IMG/VR virus record: IMGVR_UViG_2526164634_000034 | Location: 1 to 38,867 of that record | Reading direction: 5' to 3' (one strand) | DNA: 38,867 nucleotides | Source of the DNA: a virus | Taxonomy: Duplodnaviria; Heunggongvirae; Uroviricota; Caudoviricetes | Part shown: one piece after another, positions 9,967 through 33,742 of the stretch | Layout of the letters: each line of letters opens with the position of its first letter | Numbering within the stretch: the first letter of the stretch is position 1 | The notes under the pieces: generated by a model | Databases searched by the model: none | What the model saw: only the letters and a program-made list of their open reading frames with translations | Told to the model about the DNA's origin: nothing | Position numbers and translations under genes: made by a program

Positions 9967-11238
9967 TTACGGATTACCGAAGAACTGACCGCCCATGTGA
10001 GGGTTAAAGCACACATATGCAGGCAGTAAGTCGAAACGCATTTTTTGCACGTTGGCATCGCCATCTGCGTATTTATGTACGCGGATGGAGAAACCTTCAT
10101 ATGTTGCAACAGCAGAATCAATACTGTGCAGTTTCGGTAGTGGGATAGAGCCAAGTCCACAGAAGAACTTGTTATAGAACAGGTTTGGCTTCATTGTCTG
10201 GCTAGCAGTGCCTACCACAGATACGGCATCGCCTGCCGCTACCTGACGACTTACAGAGTTGTACTGCGGGTTTGTAGTGTCATAAATCGGAACACCAGAA
10301 AGCGTAACCGTCACATCGCCACTGCTGTCTGAATCAGCATCAGCAGTAACCGTTGCTGTGAAGCTAATTGGTGTGGCTCCGTTATACAACGCCTGTTTGG
10401 TCTGCTGTTGCAGCCAGTAGGTATTGGTGAATTTAACCTGATCACCAGCTTTCAGGAAACCTGTAACGCTGGTTGTCGCTCCGGTCAATGTTACAGTGAA
10501 CTGGTATGAGTCTTTAACTGCGTTATAGGTAACAGTTGGCTGTGTTTTGACTGTCAGTGTTCCGCCAAATGCCCCCTGCGTACGAGAGGCAAGCCCATTA
10601 GATATCAGTGCGCGAATGCCGCCAAAATTGGTTGGGATCTGTGCGTTCTCCCATGCAGTACGAACCAATTGATCTGAAGCATGCAAACCAGTCTGCGCAT
10701 CAGCAAGTCGCTGTGCAGACCATGGATCCATTACAGCATAGTTTTCACCTTCATTAACGCCGAGGTCTTTCAGGAAAGATGCCGTCTGCGCAACATCAGA
10801 CCATTTGGTGATTGGAGTATTGGGGCTACCAAGTGACAACGCACCGTTATTCATCATGAAGTGAGCAAGCTCTGTTTCAAGGTCGGTAACGATTCGCTGG
10901 CGAACCGGCGCGAGAATTTCTTCCAGTTGGTTAAGCTTGATCGCTTCCTCCAGTTGCTGATATTCAACAGCAACAGTGATGTAGTTACCTACACGCCCCG
11001 TAGCTTTACCTGAGATCAGGTTGTTTTTATTTTGCCCTGAAATATCACCAGTGGGAGTACGGAGGGATGAGAATTGATGCGGACGTTTAAAGCTAACGCT
11101 ATCGCCAGTGCTGGAGTTGATTTCACCTGCCAGCAACTGACGGTCTACGGTTTTCGCCAGAACTAAATCTGACATAAAACCCGGAAGGAATTTTTTCAGA
11201 ACGATTTGACTGACGTTACTGTCGAGATTGTTAGGCAT
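9967..11238 (-). CDS. Major capsid (coat) protein, Sf6 type
   Basis: 423 aa beginning MPNNLDSNVSQIVLKKFLPGF...; matches the recalled Sf6 coat protein in length and sequence and is unlike P22 coat. Confidence 0.85.
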   Translation of the reverse strand: MPNNLDSNVSQIVLKKFLPGFMSDLVLAKTVDRQLLAGEINSSTGDSVSFKRPHQFSSLRTPTGDISGQNKNNLISGKATGRVGNYITVAVEYQQLEEAIKLNQLEEILAPVRQRIVTDLETELAHFMMNNGALSLGSPNTPITKWSDVAQTASFLKDLGVNEGENYAVMDPWSAQRLADAQTGLHASDQLVRTAWENAQIPTNFGGIRALISNGLASRTQGAFGGTLTVKTQPTVTYNAVKDSYQFTVTLTGATTSVTGFLKAGDQVKFTNTYWLQQQTKQALYNGATPISFTATVTADADSDSSGDVTVTLSGVPIYDTTNPQYNSVSRQVAAGDAVSVVGTASQTMKPNLFYNKFFCGLGSIPLPKLHSIDSAVATYEGFSIRVHKYADGDANVQKMRFDLLPAYVCFNPHMGGQFFGNP

Positions 11239-11249
11239 TTATCTTTTCC

Positions 11250-12134
11250 TTATTCGATTTTTGCGCCGGGGCATAATTTGTTGAATTCGTCTTGTTTCGC
11301 ATCAGCACCGCCACCACGTACTTCCGGCTCTGGCTTGATGGCTTTCTTTGGTTTTGGAGCAAGGCTTACCTGTTTGCTAATCTGCCCCAAGAGGAATGCT
11401 GCGCGAATTGGATCTGTCTCAGCGGCTACACGCTGGCGTAATTGCTGGCTCTTACCTAAGCCATAGGCGAGTAGTTCAGAGCCTTCGTCTGCACAGTGAA
11501 TGATGATTTCCTGCTGAATTGGTGGTAGCTCACTAAGAACAATGGCCTCCATTTCCTGATAATCTTTCACAGGAAGTTTGGCTGCCCGTTGTTTATGCGC
11601 TTCTACCCTTTGCTGGAAACGCTGTTGGTATTCCTGTTGCTGACGTAGTTTTTGTTGCTGCTGCTGTTCGACACGGCCTTTTTTCTCATGCCAATCAGTC
11701 AATGCCTGTTCAAACGCCTGTTCGTCATAATCACACGACTCAAGAGTCGGTTTTGGTGGAATAGCGTCTGGTTGTGGTTGCTGATGTTCCGCTGGCTTGG
11801 CTAATGCTTCCTCAAGCTGGCGGCGCAACTCACGGTTTTCTTTCTGTGTTTCTTTGAAGCCTTTGCGAAGATCTTTCACCCATTGCGGTGCAGGTTGCCC
11901 GTCAATGTGATCATCATCGTCAGCGTTAAGCTGAATTTCTTCATCACCAATACGCAAGGCGTAATCTTCTGGTGTCTCTTCGGTTTTTTCAGGCTCAGTT
12001 GCCACCTCTTTACCGTTGTCATCCTGGCTTTCATTCTCAGGCTGTGACTCTGTTTGGATGATGGTTTCTTCTGCATTTTCCTGTGTTTCAGACAGGTCAA
12101 TAACCTGACCGTCGATGATCAGTTCGTTTTCCAT
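11250..12134 (-). CDS. Scaffolding protein
   Basis: 294-aa acidic, Gln/Glu-rich helical protein between the portal and coat genes. Confidence 0.75.
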   Translation of the reverse strand: MENELIIDGQVIDLSETQENAEETIIQTESQPENESQDDNGKEVATEPEKTEETPEDYALRIGDEEIQLNADDDDHIDGQPAPQWVKDLRKGFKETQKENRELRRQLEEALAKPAEHQQPQPDAIPPKPTLESCDYDEQAFEQALTDWHEKKGRVEQQQQQKLRQQQEYQQRFQQRVEAHKQRAAKLPVKDYQEMEAIVLSELPPIQQEIIIHCADEGSELLAYGLGKSQQLRQRVAAETDPIRAAFLLGQISKQVSLAPKPKKAIKPEPEVRGGGADAKQDEFNKLCPGAKIE

Positions 12135-12965
12135 TGATTACTCCTGGTTAACTCGGCATTAAGTCTGCCGGTGACTGTGGTGGTGACTGGAATTGCTGTT
12201 GTTGTGACTCGGCGACATCTTTCAGAAGGCGTATTGCCTCCATCACTGCTTTGTCATCGATGTTTCTGGCTTGAGCCAGTTTATAGACAGTGTTTGCCTG
12301 ACTCTCCATCGCATCCTGCTGGGCAGTAAATGCTTTGATTTGAGTTTGAGCAGTTTCGTTAGTTGCTTTTTGCGCTTCTGCCTGCGCTGCTACCATTTGC
12401 GCCTGAGCGAGAACCATTTCAGGATTTGGCTGGCTTTGTGCTGCCATTTGCGCCTGTTGAACAATCTGCTGCTCTTTCTCATTGCGTGGTTTTGCAATAC
12501 CAGATATCAGCAGTTGGTTTCGGTTGTACTCTTTGAAGTCATCAAGGCCTTCGCCATCGATATTGTCCAGAATAATACCCTGAATTGCCGGGCGCATTGG
12601 GTCTGTTGGAAGCATAGAGCTAAGGACATTTGTCAGTACAGAAACCGTTGCATCACGTCGTGCTGTGTAGCTTGGTCCAACATCAACCGTCACATCGTAT
12701 CGACCGACAGAAAGGTCATTTAACGCAACAACAGCCCCTGTTTGCCTGTCAACAACCTGTGCGCTCAGGACAGCGATATCATCACTTCCATCTTCGTTAA
12801 CGATGCGCACTTCACGTTCTGAACCGTACACTTCACGCGCCATTGACAGCCATACTTCACCAGCGCGTTTAAGACTTTTCGCCATATTATCCAGATAGAT
12901 AAACGAAGCCATATCTGCTCTGTTCATCAAGTTGTTAACCGTTTCCTGAGCAATATTACTTGGCA

Positions 12966-14294
12966 CTGAGAGATCCCCTCATAATTTCCCCAAAACGTAA
13001 CCATGTGTGAATAGATTTTGAGTAAGCAGGGTTGCAGCCACGAGTGAGTCTTCCCTTGTTATTGTGTAGCCAGAATGCCGCAAAACTTCCATGCCTAAGC
13101 GAACTGTTGAGAGTACGTTTCGATTTCTGACTGTGTTAGCCTGGAAGTGCTTGTCCCAACCTTGTTTCTGAGCATGAACGCCCGCAAGCCAACATGTTAG
13201 TTGAAGCATCAGGGCGATTAGCAGCATGATATCAAAACGCTCTGAGCTGCTCGTTCGGCTATGGCGTAGGCCTAGTCCGTAGGCAGGACTTTTCAAGTCT
13301 CGGAAGGTTTCTTCAATCTGCATTCGCTTCGAATAGATATTAACAAGTTGTTTGGGTGTTCGAATTTCAACAGGTAAGTTAGTTGCTAGAATCCATGGCT
13401 CCTTTGCCGACGCTGAGTAGATTTTAGGTGACGGGTGGTGACAATGAGTCCGTGTCGAGCGCTGATTTTTTCGGCCTTTAGAGCGAGATTTATACAATAG
13501 AATTTGGCATGAGATTGGATTGCTTTTAGTCAGCCTCTTATAGCCTAAAGTCTTTGAGTGACTAGATGACATATCATGTAAGTTGCTGATAGGTTTCCAG
13601 TTTTCCGCTCCTAGGTCTGCATATTGTACTTTTCCTCTTACTCGACTTAACCAGTACCAACCCAGCTTCTCAACGGATTTATACCATGGCACTTTAAAGC
13701 CAGCATCACTGACAATGAGCGGTGTGGTGTTACTCGGTAGAATGCTCGCAAGGTCGGCTAGAAATTGGTCATGAGCTTTCTTTGAACATTGCTCTGAAAG
13801 CGGGAACGCTTTCTCATAAAGAGTAACAGAACGACCGTGTAGTGCGACTGAAGCTCGCAATACCATAAGCCGTTTTTGCTCACGGATATCAGACCAGTCA
13901 ACAAGTACAATGGGCATCGTATTGCCCGAACAGATAAAGCTAGCATGCCAACGGTATACAGCGAGTCGCTCTTTGTGGAGGTGACGATTACCTAACAATC
14001 GGTCGATTCGTTTGATGTTATGTTTTGTTCTCGCTTTGGTTGGCAGGTTACGGCCAAGTTCGGTAAGAGTGAGAGTTTTACAGTCAAGTAAGGCGTGGCA
14101 AGCCAACGTTAAGCTGTTGAGTCGTTTTAAGTGTAATTCGGGGCAGAATTGGTAAAGAGAGTCGTGTAAAATATCGAGTTCGCACATTTTGTTGTCTGAT
14201 TATTGATTTTTGGCGAAACCATTTGATCATATGACAAGATGTGTATCTACCTTAACTTAATGATTTTGATAAAAATCATTAGGGGATTCATCAG
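12966..14294 (-). mobile_element. IS10 (1329 bp) with 9-bp target-site duplication TACTTGGCA
   Basis: Terminal sequences CTGAGAGATCCCCTCATAATTTCCCC (12966..) and ...AATCATTAGGGGATTCATCAG (..14294); identical 9-bp direct repeats at 12957..12965 and 14295..14303. Confidence 0.95.
12979..14187 (-). CDS. IS10 transposase
   Basis: 402 aa, MCELDILHDSLYQFCPELHLKRLNSLTLACHALLDCK..., matching the recalled IS10 (Tn10) transposase. Confidence 0.95.
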   Translation of the reverse strand: MCELDILHDSLYQFCPELHLKRLNSLTLACHALLDCKTLTLTELGRNLPTKARTKHNIKRIDRLLGNRHLHKERLAVYRWHASFICSGNTMPIVLVDWSDIREQKRLMVLRASVALHGRSVTLYEKAFPLSEQCSKKAHDQFLADLASILPSNTTPLIVSDAGFKVPWYKSVEKLGWYWLSRVRGKVQYADLGAENWKPISNLHDMSSSHSKTLGYKRLTKSNPISCQILLYKSRSKGRKNQRSTRTHCHHPSPKIYSASAKEPWILATNLPVEIRTPKQLVNIYSKRMQIEETFRDLKSPAYGLGLRHSRTSSSERFDIMLLIALMLQLTCWLAGVHAQKQGWDKHFQANTVRNRNVLSTVRLGMEVLRHSGYTITREDSLVAATLLTQNLFTHGYVLGKL

Positions 14295-15614
14295 TACTTG
14301 GCATCTGCTGCATGGCCTGACTGCCGCCTGTAACCTCCTGAATATCAGCACTGGTTTGCTGTAGTAATGCAGCCAATGCCTGATTCATAACCGCAGGCTG
14401 TGTATATCCTGCCGGGGTAGCTCCAGCGATAATGTTGCCAGATTTATCTCTCACTTCGCGCAACGGCAAGAACGCTGGGCGTTTCTTGTTGCGAGCCTCC
14501 CAGTGCTTCTCAAGTCCACGAATTTGCTCCATGCCAACTATAGGGATCTGACCGGGGTCTTGCGCTGCAGTATCAGCCAGCATTGAAACCTGAAGGTTGT
14601 ACAAACGCTGTGGATCCATTGCTTTTGCAATGTGCCCTTCGACACGCTCAATGTCATCAATGAACCAGCGTTTTCCATAAACCGGGATGAGGGGGATATG
14701 CTCACCAGGAATACGTCGAGGTTTCTCAAGGAAACCATCACCATCCACTACGGATACATACACACGACGGCGCTTCACTGAGCGCCTTGCCACTTCCTGA
14801 AATCCAGCTATTGCCAGTTCATCTTCAATATCTTCAACCTGATCACTGTCGTATGTTGCAATCTCTCCAGTGATTGGATGTCGATAACTGATGACGTCAA
14901 CAGACTCTTTACGAACTTCGTAATACTTCGCTATGTAAATAACATCTGCACCAAACCAGTTATATTCCCAACTGGTCATAGACGTTACATCCAGAGAAGT
15001 GGGAGGTTTCTTTCCGTATTCAGCCTCATATTTTTCAGGTGACAACGAATACATACAGAACGCCCACAACGCGTCAGATTTGTCGTACTTCTTAGCGTCA
15101 GGGTCAAACCACACAGAGCGCGACGGGTCGTATATTGGTTCAATAGCAATACGCTGACGATCGTCCATGGGGTCGTATTCATTGACCAGCATCGACGCCA
15201 AACGGAAGCAACCGAAACCACCAGTAGCAGCGTCGTCAAATGCATTATCGCAAGCCTCACCGCCATCAGTTTCTTCGTAGTCAGCACGGAACAGACCATT
15301 TAATTTATTGGCTAACTCTTCGCTTGCCTCTCTGTCACCAGGACGAAACTTAACGGTTATTCTGTTATTGCGGTATTCTGCAATGATGCGGTTAAGTTCA
15401 GTTGCTACCTTATTGATTTCAAACTTAGGATACTTCTCGAACTGCTCATCAAGCTTAGTTCCAGCCGCCGTTGCTCCTTCCCATTGACCTCCGGGGACAC
15501 GAGCAAACCTCGTAGCTTCAATGCACTTTTCGCGCACTTCCTTCTGTGGAGAATAGGCGCGGTCAAACCTGAGCATGATCCGCTCATGTTTTTTCTCTAA
15601 TGTCTCTGCCATGT

Positions 15615-17027
15615 TTACCAACCGGAGGATGAGGGAACGTATATTTCTGTTTCTTCGCGGACCAATGCCGGGAAATGCATACACATCATCAGCGCATCAG
15701 CCAGGTTAGGAGATGGAATACCGAGCTTCTGCTTCATTTCGACCTTAGTCATAAGCTCCAGCTTCCCGTTATTATTGAATTTGCGCTGAATCTGAGTCAG
15801 TTCTGCAAACAGCTTCTCCAGCATCTTCTCGCCTATCGCTTCTTTGTCGAAACTCAGCATGTCGTCGGGGTCTGCATACTCACCGTGAACAACCGCCCGA
15901 TATGTCAGATACAGCCTGTCAGCCAGCGCATAATAGAATTGCGCTCGCTTATTGCGGAATACATCGCCAATAGTGCGAACGTTGTCGCCCTGTACTACTT
16001 CATCAGCCCATGCTCCGGCCTGATACGGCGCATCTTCATCGAATGGCGATTCGCTGCCCTTGAACATCGTGGCGGTGATTTTCTTGCCGGAGAACGCTTC
16101 CGTTGTCTGTCTGCGTAGCCCGGCACCAACACCATCACCATCCCACAGGTAGTGGTCAGCGCCGTCTTCAATCGCCAGAGAAGTAGCCCAGTCAGCACCC
16201 TCGTTGATGTCCATCAGCAGACCTTCGGCAATGCGTTTAACTACCGAACCGTGGCGCGATGCGTAACCTTTAGCATCTGGCCCTGTATCTGACGGGTCAT
16301 GTGCAGAAACAACAGCGCCTTTCGCTTTCCATCCGAGTTTCTTGTGCGCATCGGTTGCGGCTTCAAGCCATTCACGTTTGATGATTGCCATATCACTTGC
16401 GCTTACCGGCTCACCAAGCCAGATGTGACGATACAGTGTCGGGTTTCTGCGTTTACACTCTTCCATCTCCAGACGGAGAACTTCAGGAAAGTGCGGGTTG
16501 TCGGTGTAGTTCACCGTCAGCAGACAAATATCATCAGGAGGGTTTACGACGAATCGCTGATAGGTATCGTCGAGGATGTTTTTCGGGTTAAAGCTCACCC
16601 ATATTTCGGAAAACGGCTTGCGGATTGTTGGGATCAGGATATCCCACGATTCCTTTGTTACCGCTTCCGCTTCTTCCACCCAGCAGATATCAATGCCTTC
16701 GAGCGATTTAATCTTCGTCGGGTTGTTTTTGATGCCGTAGAACATGAACTCAGCATTCGTTCCGAGATGACGAATCATGGAACGCTGAATTTCAAACTCA
16801 GCCGAATACCCTTCACGCTCGATGGTATCTTCAAGCAACCGGATTACCGAATCGCTGATACTGTTTTGCAGTTCACGAGCGCAGAGTATGCGCACAGGCT
16901 GCCGACGCGCCGCTTCAACAAGCAGCCTCGCAATTGCCCATGACTTACCGCTACCTCGACCGCCTTTGGCGACTTTGTAGCGATGCGCCTCAATGAACGG
17001 TTCAAAGATAGGATTAATCGAGGTCAT
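15615..17027 (-). CDS. Terminase large subunit
   Basis: 470 aa (Sf6 gp2 size) with Walker A-like KVAKGGRGSGKS near the N-terminus; stop overlaps the portal start. Confidence 0.9.
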   Translation of the reverse strand: MTSINPIFEPFIEAHRYKVAKGGRGSGKSWAIARLLVEAARRQPVRILCARELQNSISDSVIRLLEDTIEREGYSAEFEIQRSMIRHLGTNAEFMFYGIKNNPTKIKSLEGIDICWVEEAEAVTKESWDILIPTIRKPFSEIWVSFNPKNILDDTYQRFVVNPPDDICLLTVNYTDNPHFPEVLRLEMEECKRRNPTLYRHIWLGEPVSASDMAIIKREWLEAATDAHKKLGWKAKGAVVSAHDPSDTGPDAKGYASRHGSVVKRIAEGLLMDINEGADWATSLAIEDGADHYLWDGDGVGAGLRRQTTEAFSGKKITATMFKGSESPFDEDAPYQAGAWADEVVQGDNVRTIGDVFRNKRAQFYYALADRLYLTYRAVVHGEYADPDDMLSFDKEAIGEKMLEKLFAELTQIQRKFNNNGKLELMTKVEMKQKLGIPSPNLADALMMCMHFPALVREETEIYVPSSSGW

Positions 17028-17449
17028 TTTCCGAATAGAGTGCTCATCGGTGATGTTTCAATCTGAATTGCGCCGCCGTCCTTACCGACAAGCTCGTTAG
17101 TTACCTTGTCGCCATACTTACGGGGATTCATTCGGGCCAGCGCCCATTTGCGGGTATCAACGCGAAGTCTTGCCTTTGCCACCTCAGCAGCATCTGGAAT
17201 CGCAGTGTCAGCAATTTCGAATATCTCTTCGAAAATAGAATCAGCTCGCGCCTCAGTTGCCTTCGCGTACTTGTCTCTAAAGTCGTCATGCTCTGACAGC
17301 CAGCGAAATACAGTAGCCTTTGCTGGCATGCCGGGGCGCTTGCAAACCTTAACCAGACTTTCCCCGGAGGCAAGCAGCGCACAGATATCATCAGCCACCT
17401 CCGGCAGGTAATCCGAAGGGCGACCGACATTCTTTTTCTCAGTCGCCAT
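17024..17449 (-). CDS. Terminase small subunit (Sf6 gp1-like)
   Basis: 141 aa immediately upstream of and overlapping the large terminase. Confidence 0.8.
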   Translation of the reverse strand: MATEKKNVGRPSDYLPEVADDICALLASGESLVKVCKRPGMPAKATVFRWLSEHDDFRDKYAKATEARADSIFEEIFEIADTAIPDAAEVAKARLRVDTRKWALARMNPRKYGDKVTNELVGKDGGAIQIETSPMSTLFGK

Positions 17450-27746: not shown

Positions 27747-28433
27747 ATGGATAAATACGAACAAAGACGACTAAGGCTGATAGAGATAAGAGACCGATTC
27801 TGTAATGGAAAGGCCTCAGAGTTGGCTCGTCGAATAGAAAGGGAACCATCATACGTTTCCAGAATGCTGTATCCGGAAGGAAAAAGCGGAAAAAAACGCA
27901 TTGCTGACGATATGATGGAGCTAATTGAAAAATCTTTTAATCTCCCACGCGGATGGATGGACATGCTTGCAGATGGTAAAGCTGGAGCTACGGACCATCT
28001 TGAGTTTGCGGGTAACGTTCGTGCGGGTTTTGTTCCGGTAATTGGTGAAGCCGTTTTGGGAGTTGATGGCTCAGTGGATATGATTGAATTCAGATCCGGT
28101 TGGTTAAGCATCTACAGCGGCGATAAAGATGCTTACGGTCTGAAGGTTAAGGGTGACAGCATGTGGCCAAGGATTCAGTCAGGAGAATATGTTGTTATTG
28201 AACCAAATACGCCAGTACATCCAGGTGATGAAGTCTTTGTAAGGACCAAAGACGGTCACAACATGATAAAGATCATGAACAAAACAAGAGACGGTGATTA
28301 TCAGTTTAGTAGCATAAACAGTGATCACCGCCCAATCACTCTTCCTGTTGAAGAAGTTGATAAAATGCATTTTGTTTCAGCTATTGTGAAACACACCAGG
28401 TACGTAGACCAGGACGATCTGCCAAAAGTTTGA
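27747..28433 (+). CDS. cI: CI repressor (HTH plus LexA-like S24 autoprotease domain)
   Basis: 228 aa; C-terminal domain with catalytic Ser (GDSMWP) and downstream Lys; divergent from cro. Confidence 0.9.
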   Translation: MDKYEQRRLRLIEIRDRFCNGKASELARRIEREPSYVSRMLYPEGKSGKKRIADDMMELIEKSFNLPRGWMDMLADGKAGATDHLEFAGNVRAGFVPVIGEAVLGVDGSVDMIEFRSGWLSIYSGDKDAYGLKVKGDSMWPRIQSGEYVVIEPNTPVHPGDEVFVRTKDGHNMIKIMNKTRDGDYQFSSINSDHRPITLPVEEVDKMHFVSAIVKHTRYVDQDDLPKV

Positions 28434-28447
28434 GGATAAAGCAGCAA

Positions 28448-28744
28448 ATGTTTATACCCGGCATAGTAGTCGCTGTTGTAATCATCTGCTTCATATGGGC
28501 AAAGTTATCTCCTGTAAGCTCTAAGCATACAGCTGAACTCATGAGGAAGAAGCATCTTATACATGAGGCAGAATCGATAATTAAAAAGTTCAAAGGCATG
28601 TCATACGACGACATGTCATCAGAGCAGATTGCTATGTATAAATGCGCCATTGAGCGCCTTGACTACTTAAACGGACTCAAACCCAAACACACCCCAGTAG
28701 AATCAAAATTGCCGCAATGGCCAAGCAATCCAAATAGCTTCTGA
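28448..28744 (+). CDS. Small single-pass membrane protein at the rex position (candidate exclusion factor)
   Basis: 98 aa from ATG 28448 (GAGGA upstream; the track ORF begins at TTG 28430); N-terminal transmembrane helix FIPGIVVAVVIICFIWAKL; co-oriented with cI and followed by a terminator. Confidence 0.5.
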   Translation: MFIPGIVVAVVIICFIWAKLSPVSSKHTAELMRKKHLIHEAESIIKKFKGMSYDDMSSEQIAMYKCAIERLDYLNGLKPKHTPVESKLPQWPSNPNSF

Positions 28745-28755
28745 CATCTCCTTTC

Positions 28756-28778
28756 AGCCCGCAAAGCGGGCTTTTTTA
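28756..28778 (+). terminator. Rho-independent terminator ending the cI operon
   Basis: AGCCCGC-AAA-GCGGGCT followed by TTTTTTAT. Confidence 0.7.
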
Positions 28779-28797
28779 TATCAATCCAAAAAATTAA

Positions 28798-28881
28798 TTA
28801 CCTGAAAATTCAAGCAGGTAAACTCTTACATCAATTTTATTTACCTACAGGTATAGACAGCTGTTTTACCTGCAGGTATAT
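28798..28881. promoter_or_regulatory. OL operator region / pL
   Basis: Repeats of the OR-type motif: TTTACCTACAGGTATAG (28838..28856) and TTTTACCTGCAGGTATAT (28864..28881), plus a spaced variant TTACCTGAAAATTCAAGCAGGTAA (28798..28821). Confidence 0.65.
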
Positions 28882-28922
28882 TTTAGGCCATCAGCAGGAC
28901 GCACTAACCACCATGAAGGTGA

Positions 28923-28953
28923 TGCTCTTAAAAATTAAGCCCTGAAGAAGGGC
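28923..28953 (+). promoter_or_regulatory. nutL (boxA + boxB)
   Basis: TGCTCTTAA...GCCCTGAAGAAGGGC; matches recalled lambda nutL with one boxA substitution (T for C). Confidence 0.85.
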
Positions 28954-29221
28954 AGCATTCAAAGCAGAAGGCTTTGGGGTGTGGTGAAGCCAGCTAGTCA
29001 CTGGCAAGTGCTTACCTACTGTTGAGCGGTGAAGCGCTCCCAACGCTAGCAATAGCGTGGACGAGATGGGGAGCCGCGGGCGATAAGGCCGCCATAACGC
29101 GCACGTTGTCGCATGGAAAAATCGCTGGGGTGCCGGTTATACCCATCCGAATGAGACTCAACAAGCTGGAGCTAGACTACCAGCCACCACACCACCAAAG
29201 CTAACTGACAGGAGAATCCAG

Positions 29222-29548
29222 ATGGATGCACAAACACGCCGCCGCGAACGTCGCGCAGAGAAACAGGCTCAATGGAAAGCAGCAAATCCCCTGTTGGTTG
29301 GGGTAAGCGCAAAACCAGTTAACCGCCCTATTCTCTCGCTGAATCGCAAACCGAAATCACGAGTAGAAAGCGCACTGAATCCGATAGACCTTACGGTGCT
29401 GGCTGAATACCACGAACAGATTGAAAACAACCTGCAACGTATTGAGCGCAAGAATCAGCGCACATGGTACAGCAAACCACGCAGTGAAATGGGTGTGACT
29501 TGTGTTGGTCGCCAGAAAATGAAATTAGGCAGCAAACCACTTATTTGA
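29222..29548 (+). CDS. N: Antiterminator N
   Basis: 108 aa, MDAQTRRRERRAEKQAQWKAANPLLVGVSAKPVNRPILSLNRK... with arginine-rich motif; near-identical to recalled lambda N in its N-terminal two thirds. Confidence 0.95.
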   Translation: MDAQTRRRERRAEKQAQWKAANPLLVGVSAKPVNRPILSLNRKPKSRVESALNPIDLTVLAEYHEQIENNLQRIERKNQRTWYSKPRSEMGVTCVGRQKMKLGSKPLI

Positions 29549-29569
29549 GGTGAGGGTAATGACTCCAAC

Positions 29570-30073
29570 TTATTGATAGTGTTTTATGTTCAGATAATGC
29601 CCGATGACTTTGTCATGCAGCTCCACCGATTTTGAGAACGACAGCGACTTCCGTCCCAGCCGTGCCAGGTGCTGCCTCAGATTCAGGTTATGCCGCTCAA
29701 TTCGCTGCGTATATCGCTTGCTGATTACGTGCAGCTTTCCCTTCAGGCGGGATTCATACAGCGGCCAGCCATCCGTCATCCATATCACCACGTCAAAGGG
29801 TGACAGCAGGCTCATAAGACGCCCCAGCGTCGCCATAGTGCGTTCACCGAATACGTGCGCAACAACCGTCTTCCGGAGCCTGTCATACGCGTAAAACAGC
29901 CAGCGCTGGCGCGATTTAGCCCCGACGTATCCCCACTGTTCGTCCATTTCCGCGCAGACGATGACGTCACTGCCCGGCTGTATGCGCGAGGTTACCGACT
30001 GCGGCCTGAGTTTTTTAAATGGCGGAAAATCGTGTTGAGGCCAACGCCCATAATGCGGGCGGTTGCCCGGCAT
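29570..30073 (-). CDS. insB: IS1 transposase InsB
   Basis: 167 aa, [37 protein letters not shown]... Confidence 0.95.
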
Positions 30074-30267
30074 CCAACGCCATTCATGGCCATATCAATG
30101 ATTTTCTGGTGCGTACCGGGTTGAGAAGCGGTGTAAGTGAACTGCAGTTGCCATGTTTTACGGCAGTGAGAGCAGAGATAGCGCTGATGTCCGGCGGTGC
30201 TTTTGCCGTTACGCACCACCCCGTCAGTAGCTGAACAGGAGGGACAGCTGATAGAAACAGAAGCCAC
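29992..30267 (-). CDS. insA: IS1 InsA
   Basis: 91 aa, [40 protein letters not shown]... Confidence 0.95.
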
Positions 30268-30333
30268 TGGAGCACCTCAAAAACACCATCATACACTAAA
30301 TCAGTAAGTTGGCAGCATCACCTGAGGTGAGAT

Positions 30334-30804
30334 ATGACAAAATCATGGAGAGTACCTTTTCCTGAATCAGAAACTGAACATGATGGAATGCCTGTTTTCT
30401 GGAGATTCCAGGCGACAGTTGAAGAAGATGGGATAAAAATATTCGCACTTCAATATATAGCTTTTCATCAGACAGAGCATTATGCATGGTTGGTTCCTGC
30501 GCATTGGATTGTTAATTTTAAACCAGCACCAAATCAGTGGTTACAGGAATGGAAACAAAGGAGAAATAGATATGCAATTAAGAAAGTAGCAAAAAATGCA
30601 GAAAGATCTTTTGCATTCCCAACGAAGAAACTTGCTATTGAAAGTTTATTGCGCCGGAAGAAATACCATTTAATGAGAATAAAACAAGATTTGGCTGTTG
30701 TATCAACTCTTGTTGATGGGATGAAAAATATTGATACATCAACACCAGATATTGAATATAACTTTGGACACAACCAAGAAACAGAAAATTGGGTATTCTA
30801 CTAG
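30334..30804 (+). CDS. Hypothetical 156-aa protein, first gene after N (ral position)
   Basis: ORF whose Shine-Dalgarno lies inside the IS1 target duplication; AT-rich by eye; no recognisable motif. Confidence 0.55.
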   Translation: MTKSWRVPFPESETEHDGMPVFWRFQATVEEDGIKIFALQYIAFHQTEHYAWLVPAHWIVNFKPAPNQWLQEWKQRRNRYAIKKVAKNAERSFAFPTKKLAIESLLRRKKYHLMRIKQDLAVVSTLVDGMKNIDTSTPDIEYNFGHNQETENWVFY

Positions 30805-30828
30805 GCCGCATAGTCGGCCTTTATTTTT
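30803..30828 (+). terminator. Rho-independent terminator
   Basis: AGGCCG-CATAGT-CGGCCT followed by TTATTTTTGG, immediately after the 156-aa ORF. Confidence 0.55.
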
Positions 30829-30850
30829 GGCATAAATAACAGAGGCTAAC

Positions 30851-31147
30851 ATGGAATTTAAAGGTACTGAAGGTAAATGGGAAATAATGATGGATGGCGA
30901 TGAGATTAAAATCATCCAGGCAGACTCTCTTGAAAATGGCACAGGCTGGCGTTCGTATATTGCAATCTGTGAGGAAGTTCAATGCATTGAAGATGCCAAT
31001 CTAATAGCGGCAGCACCTGACCTTCTCGAAGCACTTCAGTTATTACTTAAGCAAACCAAAAATAGAACAACGACAACATATCCAGAATGGTATGGAGCTG
31101 TTAATAAAGGTCTCGCAGCAATCAGAAAAGCCATAGGTGATGAGTAA
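30851..31147 (+). CDS. Hypothetical 98-aa protein
   Basis: Contains ANLIAAAPDLLEALQ, loosely resembling the NAEFIAAANPATVLALLDE segment of the Ea22-like protein at 37317..38033; preceded by AGGCTAACATGG. Confidence 0.5.
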   Translation: MEFKGTEGKWEIMMDGDEIKIIQADSLENGTGWRSYIAICEEVQCIEDANLIAAAPDLLEALQLLLKQTKNRTTTTYPEWYGAVNKGLAAIRKAIGDE

Positions 31148-31305
31148 TGAATAAGAAATACATCGTTGAAGTTATAGAGCGAGAAACGAAAGAAGTAATT
31201 AAACATTTCGAATTTGATAATTATAGAAAAGCTGACCGCGTAGAAGAAGGATTGTTGCGACAAAGTAATCTCGAAAAATTTGATGTTGTCATGCGATGCG
31301 AATAA
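31147..31305 (+). CDS. Hypothetical 52-aa protein
   Basis: Start overlaps the upstream stop (TAATG); MNKKYIVEVIERETKEVIKHFEFDNYRKADRVEEGLLRQSNLEKFDVVMRCE; not in the ORF track (<60 aa). Confidence 0.35.
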   Translation: MNKKYIVEVIERETKEVIKHFEFDNYRKADRVEEGLLRQSNLEKFDVVMRCE

Positions 31306-31396
31306 GCGCCTATAGCAGATTTACGAGTCTGCTATGTGAGCAATGTCGCTCGTAACTAAACAGGAGCCGACTTGTTCTGATTATTGGAAATCTTCT

Positions 31397-31424
31397 TTGC
31401 CCTCCAGTGTGAGGGCAATTTTTT
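31397..31424 (+). terminator. Rho-independent terminator
   Basis: TTGCCCTC-CAGTGT-GAGGGCAA followed by TTTTTT. Confidence 0.55.
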
Positions 31425-31523
31425 GACGGAGGAAATATGAAATTACGTGTCTGGCATATCCCGCAAGTACCTATGAAGCCGTTCATTGTAGAAGTGGCAA
31501 GTGTTGAAGAGGGTGTTCGCCTG

Positions 31524-33593
<2,070 letters not shown>

Positions 33594-33742
33594 TTATCAG
33601 AGATGGGGCTTACGGATCGCTGGGTAGATTGGTACAGCGAATGCCAATGTTACGACGCCCCACGTAAATATATCGAAAGCCTGAAAGAAGAAACCTCAGC
33701 AGCCTGAGCGCGGATTTGACGCATACAAATTAAGGAGGATAT

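Follow-up and report, generated by a model that had tools for sequence, protein, structure and literature searches.

A complete IS1 element separates the antitermination gene N from the first accessory gene of the pL operon in a P22-like prophage, and both neighboring coding sequences are undamaged: N keeps its stop codon, and the downstream 156-aa gene keeps its ribosome-binding site. We proposed, with a probability of roughly 0.8, that the whole picture reflects a single IS1 insertion whose partial polarity is relieved by N, in the course of routine prophage decay. IS1 inserted once into the 9-bp linker that holds the stop codon and the ribosome-binding site between N and the first pL accessory gene, and both signals were kept because staggered cleavage and repair doubled these 9 bp. 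Positions below refer to the window, that is, the whole 38,867-bp stretch of DNA that was analyzed.

A Complete IS1 Element with a Perfect Target Duplication

The IS1 element occupies 29555–30322 (768 bp) on the minus strand, as delimited by its length and its inverted repeats, and its transposase genes are antisense to pL transcription. Its ends carry the inverted repeats of IS1, GGTAATGACTCC... and GGTGATGCTGCC..., which match at 18 of 23 positions (IRR at 29555–29577 and IRL at 30300–30322; in full, GGTAATGACTCCAACTTATTGAT and GGTGATGCTGCCAACTTACTGAT). On the minus strand, insA (91 aa; 29992–30267) matched the N-terminal part of the NCBIfam model transpos_IS1 (1.8e-25) and carries an IS1/IS1595 zinc-binding domain, and the insB' frame, a 167-aa ORF at 29570–30073, matched the C-terminal part of the same model (6.4e-42). 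The A6C frameshift motif TTAAAAAAC is intact at 30018–30010, and a −1 shift at this motif produces an uninterrupted InsAB' transposase of 232 aa. Over 771 aligned bases, it shares 99.7% identity with the IS1 annotated in phage P1. Thus, the features by which the IS1 family is recognized were all found here: a length of ~768 bp with ~23-bp imperfect inverted repeats beginning GGT(A/G)ATG, consecutive insA and insB' that a −1 frameshift at A6C fuses, near-identity to reference IS1 copies, and a target-site duplication, typically of 9 bp.

By megablast against complete genomes, thousands of E. coli records gave matches, and the majority of these must be copies of IS1; the identity bands of those matches refer to the whole 2.3-kb query and not to IS1 alone. 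The matching places numbered 11 per genome (median), and related copies carry an IS1A family annotation in E. coli genomes. Judged by these features, the inserted IS1 is an apparently transposition-competent copy of ordinary enterobacterial IS1. It resembles IS1A/IS1R of E. coli, Shigella, and phage P1 in its 768 bp, its termini, its insA/insB' A6C frameshift, and its 9-bp duplication, and the element itself shows no difference from them; only its insertion site was not found elsewhere. A consensus scan also detected a promoter-like site in IRL (CTGCCA-16-TATGAT; 30288–30315, minus strand), which points towards N in the antisense direction and which we take to be the IS1 insA promoter pIRL. 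The promoter of insA is a weak one, and InsA represses it.

Both IS1 ends are directly abutted by a perfect 9-bp duplication, TGAGGTGAG, at 29546–29554 and 30323–30331. This 9-mer is present just twice in the 38,867-bp window, both times beside IS1, and the chance of a 9/9 match at one fixed position is ~4e-6. The first three bases of the left copy are the TGA stop codon of N (29546–29548), and the remainder of this copy holds a Shine-Dalgarno sequence that is now orphaned; the right copy provides GAGGTGA upstream of the ATG of the 156-aa gene at 30334, which lies 3 nt past the repeat. The preliminary description had reported a 768-bp IS1 between 9-bp repeats, with the left repeat overlapping the N stop codon and the right repeat supplying the Shine-Dalgarno sequence of the 156-aa ORF; its coordinates proved exact to the base, and the ribosome-binding site is indeed duplicated.

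The Uninterrupted Junction and the Linker That Received IS1

The preliminary description had suggested that the ancestral junction between N and the downstream ORF be sought in relatives lacking IS1. We carried out this check with a reconstructed empty site, obtained in silico by removing IS1 and one repeat copy from the window, as the query. At least 80% of this empty site is present in about 100 complete E. coli genomes. The prophage of E. coli 90-9281 and phage vB_EcoP-683R2 read ...CCACTTATTTGAGGTGAGATATGACAAAATCATGG... without interruption, with a single copy of the 9-mer, and the window differs from their junction by exactly IS1 plus 9 bp. In accordance with this, the two flanks of the window overlap by exactly 9 nt when aligned to the 90-9281 prophage. 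The annotated N and 156-aa genes of E. coli O128:H27 90-9281 lie 8 nt from each other, and vB_EcoP-683R2, which has the same uninterrupted junction, is an isolated Lederbergvirus. These relatives confirm the junction that was presumed to be ancestral.

The linker itself, TTATTTGAGGTGAGATATG and its variants, was observed after N at 29540–29554 and 30323–30336 of the window and at loci L001 (the 90-9281 prophage) and L004–L016 (the last being vB_EcoP-683R2). It recurs in phage CurroJimenez after an extra 54-aa gene. Its stop-plus-Shine-Dalgarno form, TGAGGTGAG(A/C)..., is conserved behind two different N alleles and precedes five or more unrelated genes, and the other occupants of the slot after N include Ral, Nmad5, DUF7167, and DUF7446 proteins. 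The linker therefore looks like a mosaic boundary sequence of a hypervariable accessory-gene slot after N, and, since it is common to varied downstream genes and N alleles, IS1 appears to have landed in the mosaic boundary of this slot.

The Insertion Appears Recent and Private to Its Lineage

A megablast of the locus detected the same IS1 junction in none of 5,426 complete E. coli genomes and 50,697 phage records, and exact scans of GTDB species representatives, JGI metagenomes, and IMG/VR did not recover the exact left junction. A degenerate scan that allowed either IS1 orientation at the same linker gave no match, and neither did junction scans for the two other insertions of this prophage, those of IS100 and IS10. 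Three candidates for the same IS1 insertion were rejected: in two of them (H1 and H2) IS1 lies in rexA, and in the third (H10) it lies upstream of N, between the repressor gene and a hypothetical gene. Because the repeat copies are identical, the IS1 is 99.7% identical to the P1 copy, and the junction is absent from the collections, these sequence comparisons suggest that the insertion is recent and lineage-private; the collections may lack the source lineage.

An Intact pL–nutL–N Region Precedes IS1

The early region upstream of the insertion includes a repressor gene of the LexA/S24 type (27747–28433). The position of rexAB, between the repressor gene and pL, is filled by a 104-aa gene of phrog_10450 (28430–28744), for which PADLOC gave no match and which is followed by a strong terminator-like hairpin at 28756–28772. 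Amid repeated operator-like palindromes of the TACCTGCAGGTA type, a consensus scan located a pL-like sigma-70 promoter on the plus strand (TAGACA-17-TATATT; 28854–28882; 10 of 12 matches), and this was the sole plus-strand promoter-like site in 28400–31600. The region of the transcript start aligns with lambda downstream of oL.

The nutL site (28923–28953, plus strand) was identified by alignment to the annotated Nutl of lambda and consists of boxA, TGCTCTTAA (28923–28931), and boxB, GCCCTGAAGAAGGGC (28939–28953). BoxB is identical to that of lambda and folds into a 5-bp stem with a 5-nt loop (−9.4 kcal/mol), and boxA matches at 8 of 9 positions, the first base being different. This first base (28923) is T in the window, C in lambda, and G in the 90-9281 prophage, and is thus variable among otherwise near-identical nutL sites. 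A boxA followed by a boxB hairpin between pL and N is the arrangement of the lambda-type N/nut system. The untranslated leader between nutL and N (28990–29185) is ~120 nt longer than that of lambda, with an unrelated middle part; the same segment was also found in the E. coli 90-9281 prophage. A 60-aa ORF is present in the leader at 29022–29204, and a hypothetical annotation stands at the corresponding position of CurroJimenez.

The N gene (29222–29548, plus strand; 108 aa) belongs to phrog_271 and matched Pfam N36 at 1.5e-26. Its product aligns over residues 1–108 with the lambda N protein of the antitermination complex in PDB 6gov (E 3.5e-58), and this full-length alignment bears out the earlier claim that N is intact. 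Together with the N36 match, it covers the N-terminal arginine-rich motif and the NusA- and RNAP-binding regions of a lambda-type N protein, and the sequence diverges from lambda N only in the last ~25 residues. An identical 108-aa N was recorded in 80 blocks of a public collection and is thus common among public assemblies. The efficiency of antitermination could differ from that of lambda, given these C-terminal ~25 residues and the boxA base.

Transcription from N to the Distal pL Genes

Downstream of N, the orphaned Shine-Dalgarno sequence meets an ATG inside IRR and opens a 5-codon mini-ORF (MTPTY*; 29559–29576, plus strand), which, as read from the sequence, may be translated. The ~750 nt of plus-strand RNA beyond this mini-ORF contains no evident translated frame, with stops in all frames of the three-frame translation, and its C/G ratio is 1.2–1.56 over ~360 nt (29589–29949), a C-rich segment. 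The 156-aa gene (30334–30804, plus strand; 35.5% GC) is intact and matched phrog_1636 over its full length (1.9e-111). Searches of this gene against Pfam, NCBIfam, and PADLOC gave no match, its only family being this PHROG, and it is annotated as hypothetical in the 90-9281 prophage, in vB_EcoP-683R2, and in a further locus (L015). A scan placed the first intrinsic-terminator-like site downstream of N, a hairpin with a U-tract, at 30803–30820 on the plus strand; its predicted fold is modest (−9.6 kcal/mol; z −1.6). The 156-aa gene is one of three small low-GC genes (156, 98, and 52 aa; PHROGs 1636, 1273, and 6949) that lie in 30334–31305, between N and a tL2A-like terminator at 31397–31418. 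A homolog of the 98-aa gene with the same length and position, at locus L005, carries Phage_P22_Y8K6 (PF27050).

In the lysogen, where pL is repressed, the insertion would be phenotypically silent. After induction, unmodified polymerase that passes N would meet the ~750 nt of partly C-rich RNA that lacks an evident translated frame and would largely be terminated by Rho within IS1; termination is expected there because a C-rich RNA without an evident frame is a Rho-type substrate. The 156-aa gene probably now needs N for its transcription; in the ancestral arrangement it lay before the first terminator-like hairpin and could have shared a transcript with N. Once enough N is present to load at nutL, the modified complex would read through IS1 and later through IS100, a second element in the same operon. 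Thus, we proposed that delayed-early expression (cIII, kil, erf, and abc) would be reduced and delayed but not abolished, and that it would be hypersensitive to weakness in N or in the Nus factors.

The polarity of IS1 is Rho-dependent, and relief of IS polarity by N is a principle established since the 1970s; its classical demonstration is reportedly that of Adhya, Gottesman and de Crombrugghe (1974), 'Release of polarity in E. coli by gene N of phage lambda'. N antitermination processively overcomes Rho-dependent termination (PMC3526286). Direct precedent from genetics comes from lambda r14 and r32, whose insertion elements enhance termination; both nevertheless form plaques on wild-type hosts and show only a hypersensitivity to nus mutations (PMC4807359). 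The extent of read-through that we would expect at IS1 is taken from this lambda genetics. The preliminary description had been correct that IS1 separates all downstream pL genes from pL/nutL, but the functional implication that it drew, a strong polarity, was overstated, because the pL operon is transcribed by N-modified polymerase, with a pL-like promoter, nutL, and N all intact upstream.

Alternative Explanations of the Insertion

A hard polar block would give IS1 a much larger effect. It would end essentially all pL transcription after N, so that induction would fail to express the 156-aa gene, cIII, kil, erf, abc, and the distal genes, and the prophage would be locked in. IS1 insertions are classically polar in either orientation, the RNA across the element is C-rich and lacks an evident translated frame, and IS100 comes next, 1.2 kb further along; the two elements in series could add up to a strong residual polarity even with N. 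However, pL, nutL, and N are intact upstream, and Shigella phage Sf6 tolerates IS911 upstream of its essential Q gene. The lambda evidence bears on both sides, since the r14 and r32 insertions do enhance termination and yet these phages plate on wild-type hosts (PMC4807359), and N counters the Rho-dependent termination on which such a block would depend (PMC3526286). We therefore regarded a hard block as unlikely, and partial polarity relieved by N as the better account.

The main effect might instead fall on N itself, if the N message had acquired a different 3' end or stability or if the insA promoter in IRL produced antisense RNA; either change would lower N and weaken antitermination phage-wide. 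The promoter-like site in IRL does face N, but the insA promoter is, as described above, weak and InsA-repressed, and the N coding sequence and the 6 nt after its stop codon are unchanged. The precedent comes from plasmid pAA2 of EAEC, in which IS1A just downstream of aggR lowers the aggR transcript and its deletion raises it (PMC8595720). At the IS1 locus described here such an effect is conjectural, and we considered it distinctly unlikely as the main consequence of the insertion.

It is also conceivable, though in our view improbable, that IS1 and IS100 have been kept by selection as a 'grounding' lesion. N would stay intact, the excision functions and those delayed-early pL genes that are toxic, such as kil, would be damped or delayed, and the 156-aa gene would have passed from N-independent immediate-early to N-gated expression. 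If this were true, the conserved post-N linker would be a preferred target of insertions of this kind.

The ends of IS1 can combine with adjacent DNA into hybrid promoters, and TTGGCA-N18-TATGAC is readable across IRL and its flank; nevertheless, a role of IS1 as a mobile promoter that drives the 156-aa gene from the repressed prophage was rejected as very improbable, since the consensus scan found no plus-strand promoter-like site inside IS1 or at its junction, and the −10 of the sole hybrid candidate contains the ATG of the gene itself, so that a transcript would start inside the coding sequence without a ribosome-binding site. A misplaced IS1 copy from repeat resolution during assembly, for which the multicopy nature of IS1 in E. 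coli and Shigella gives an opening, was rejected as extremely improbable, because a perfect 9-bp target duplication is a signature of real transposition that misassembly does not make, and IS10 and IS100 in the window are likewise flanked by correct duplications, of 9 and 5 bp.

Comparison with Known Insertions

Lambda r14 is reportedly an IS1 insertion in cII and r32 an IS2 insertion in the cII-O region, both in the pR operon. Those insertions thus lie in pR and at least r14 is said to disrupt a gene, whereas the present insertion is in pL and strictly intergenic, with both neighbors and the ribosome-binding site kept. The likeness is that an early operon carries an IS beyond its nut site; in lambda, N largely overrides the termination that the IS adds and growth becomes hypersensitive to nus defects (PMC4807359), and both would be expected for the prophage described here. 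A natural case closer in phylogeny is Shigella phage Sf6, a close Lederbergvirus relative, whose N-dependent early operon has taken up IS911 in ninG, upstream of Q. The IS911 of Sf6 interrupts a coding sequence and the phage is viable, whereas here the IS is intergenic and the prophage has been inactivated separately, by IS10 in the portal gene. The aggR locus of pAA2 is similar in that IS1 lies just past the stop codon of a regulatory gene, carries predicted Rho-dependent terminators, and modulates the upstream transcript (PMC8595720); however, aggR is a plasmid virulence regulator without antitermination and the effect was measured, whereas the corresponding effect on N is a conjecture.

The locus stays within known behavior, combining a known element, its usual 9-bp duplication, a prophage region known to be insertion-tolerant, and a regulatory system that has long been known to suppress IS polarity. 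The value of this locus lies mainly in annotation, as a clean, gene-sparing IS1 insertion in the N-proximal accessory slot of a lambdoid pL operon; with transcript data, it would also offer a natural test of how well N-modified polymerase crosses IS1 and IS100 in series.

A P22-Like Prophage in Probable IS-Driven Decay

The window comprises most of a P22-like prophage of the Sf6/HK620 type (Lederbergvirus). Nucleotide identity to Sf6 is 96–97% across 1644–17449, from the terminase to the ejection-protein genes, apart from the interruption by IS10. The genes follow the Sf6-type order of terminase, portal, scaffold, coat, ejection proteins, and tailspike, the tailspike carries a P22 head-binding domain, and the lambdoid early region includes ERF, Abc2, Ea22, cIII, and kil. 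On this sequence evidence, IS1 entered a P22/Sf6/HK620-like prophage of E. coli or Shigella.

Two further insertions were identified, which with IS1 give this defective prophage three IS elements, including one within the portal gene. IS10 (1329 bp; 12966–14294) is flanked by the 9-bp duplication TACTTGGCA (span 12957–14303), encodes a 402-aa transposase of the IS4 family, and carries RNA-OUT at 14180–14249 (Rfam). This was the only hit of an Rfam scan of the whole window, in which no tRNAs were found. The essential morphogenesis genes are thus not all intact, and, because IS10 splits the portal gene, the prophage cannot make virions as it stands. IS100 (IS21 family; 1954 bp; 31526–33479), with istA and istB on the minus strand and a 5-bp duplication of CTGAT, splits a 103-aa P22 gp17-family gene (31437–33708), and its excision in silico restored a full-length PF17420 match (5e-55). 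The preliminary description had correctly assigned IS1 to the pL operon but had missed both the portal knockout by IS10 and the presence of IS100 in the same operon. Since IS10 has already destroyed the portal gene, the most suitable view of IS1, one of the three elements in this degrading prophage, is that of a step in IS-driven decay and not of a regulatory device. A candidate for the same IS100 insertion (H71) was rejected, as its IS100 lies in ral and not in the gp17-family gene. Independent IS100 insertions were observed nearby in other E. coli prophages, for example in ral of strain 2018-05-5CC.
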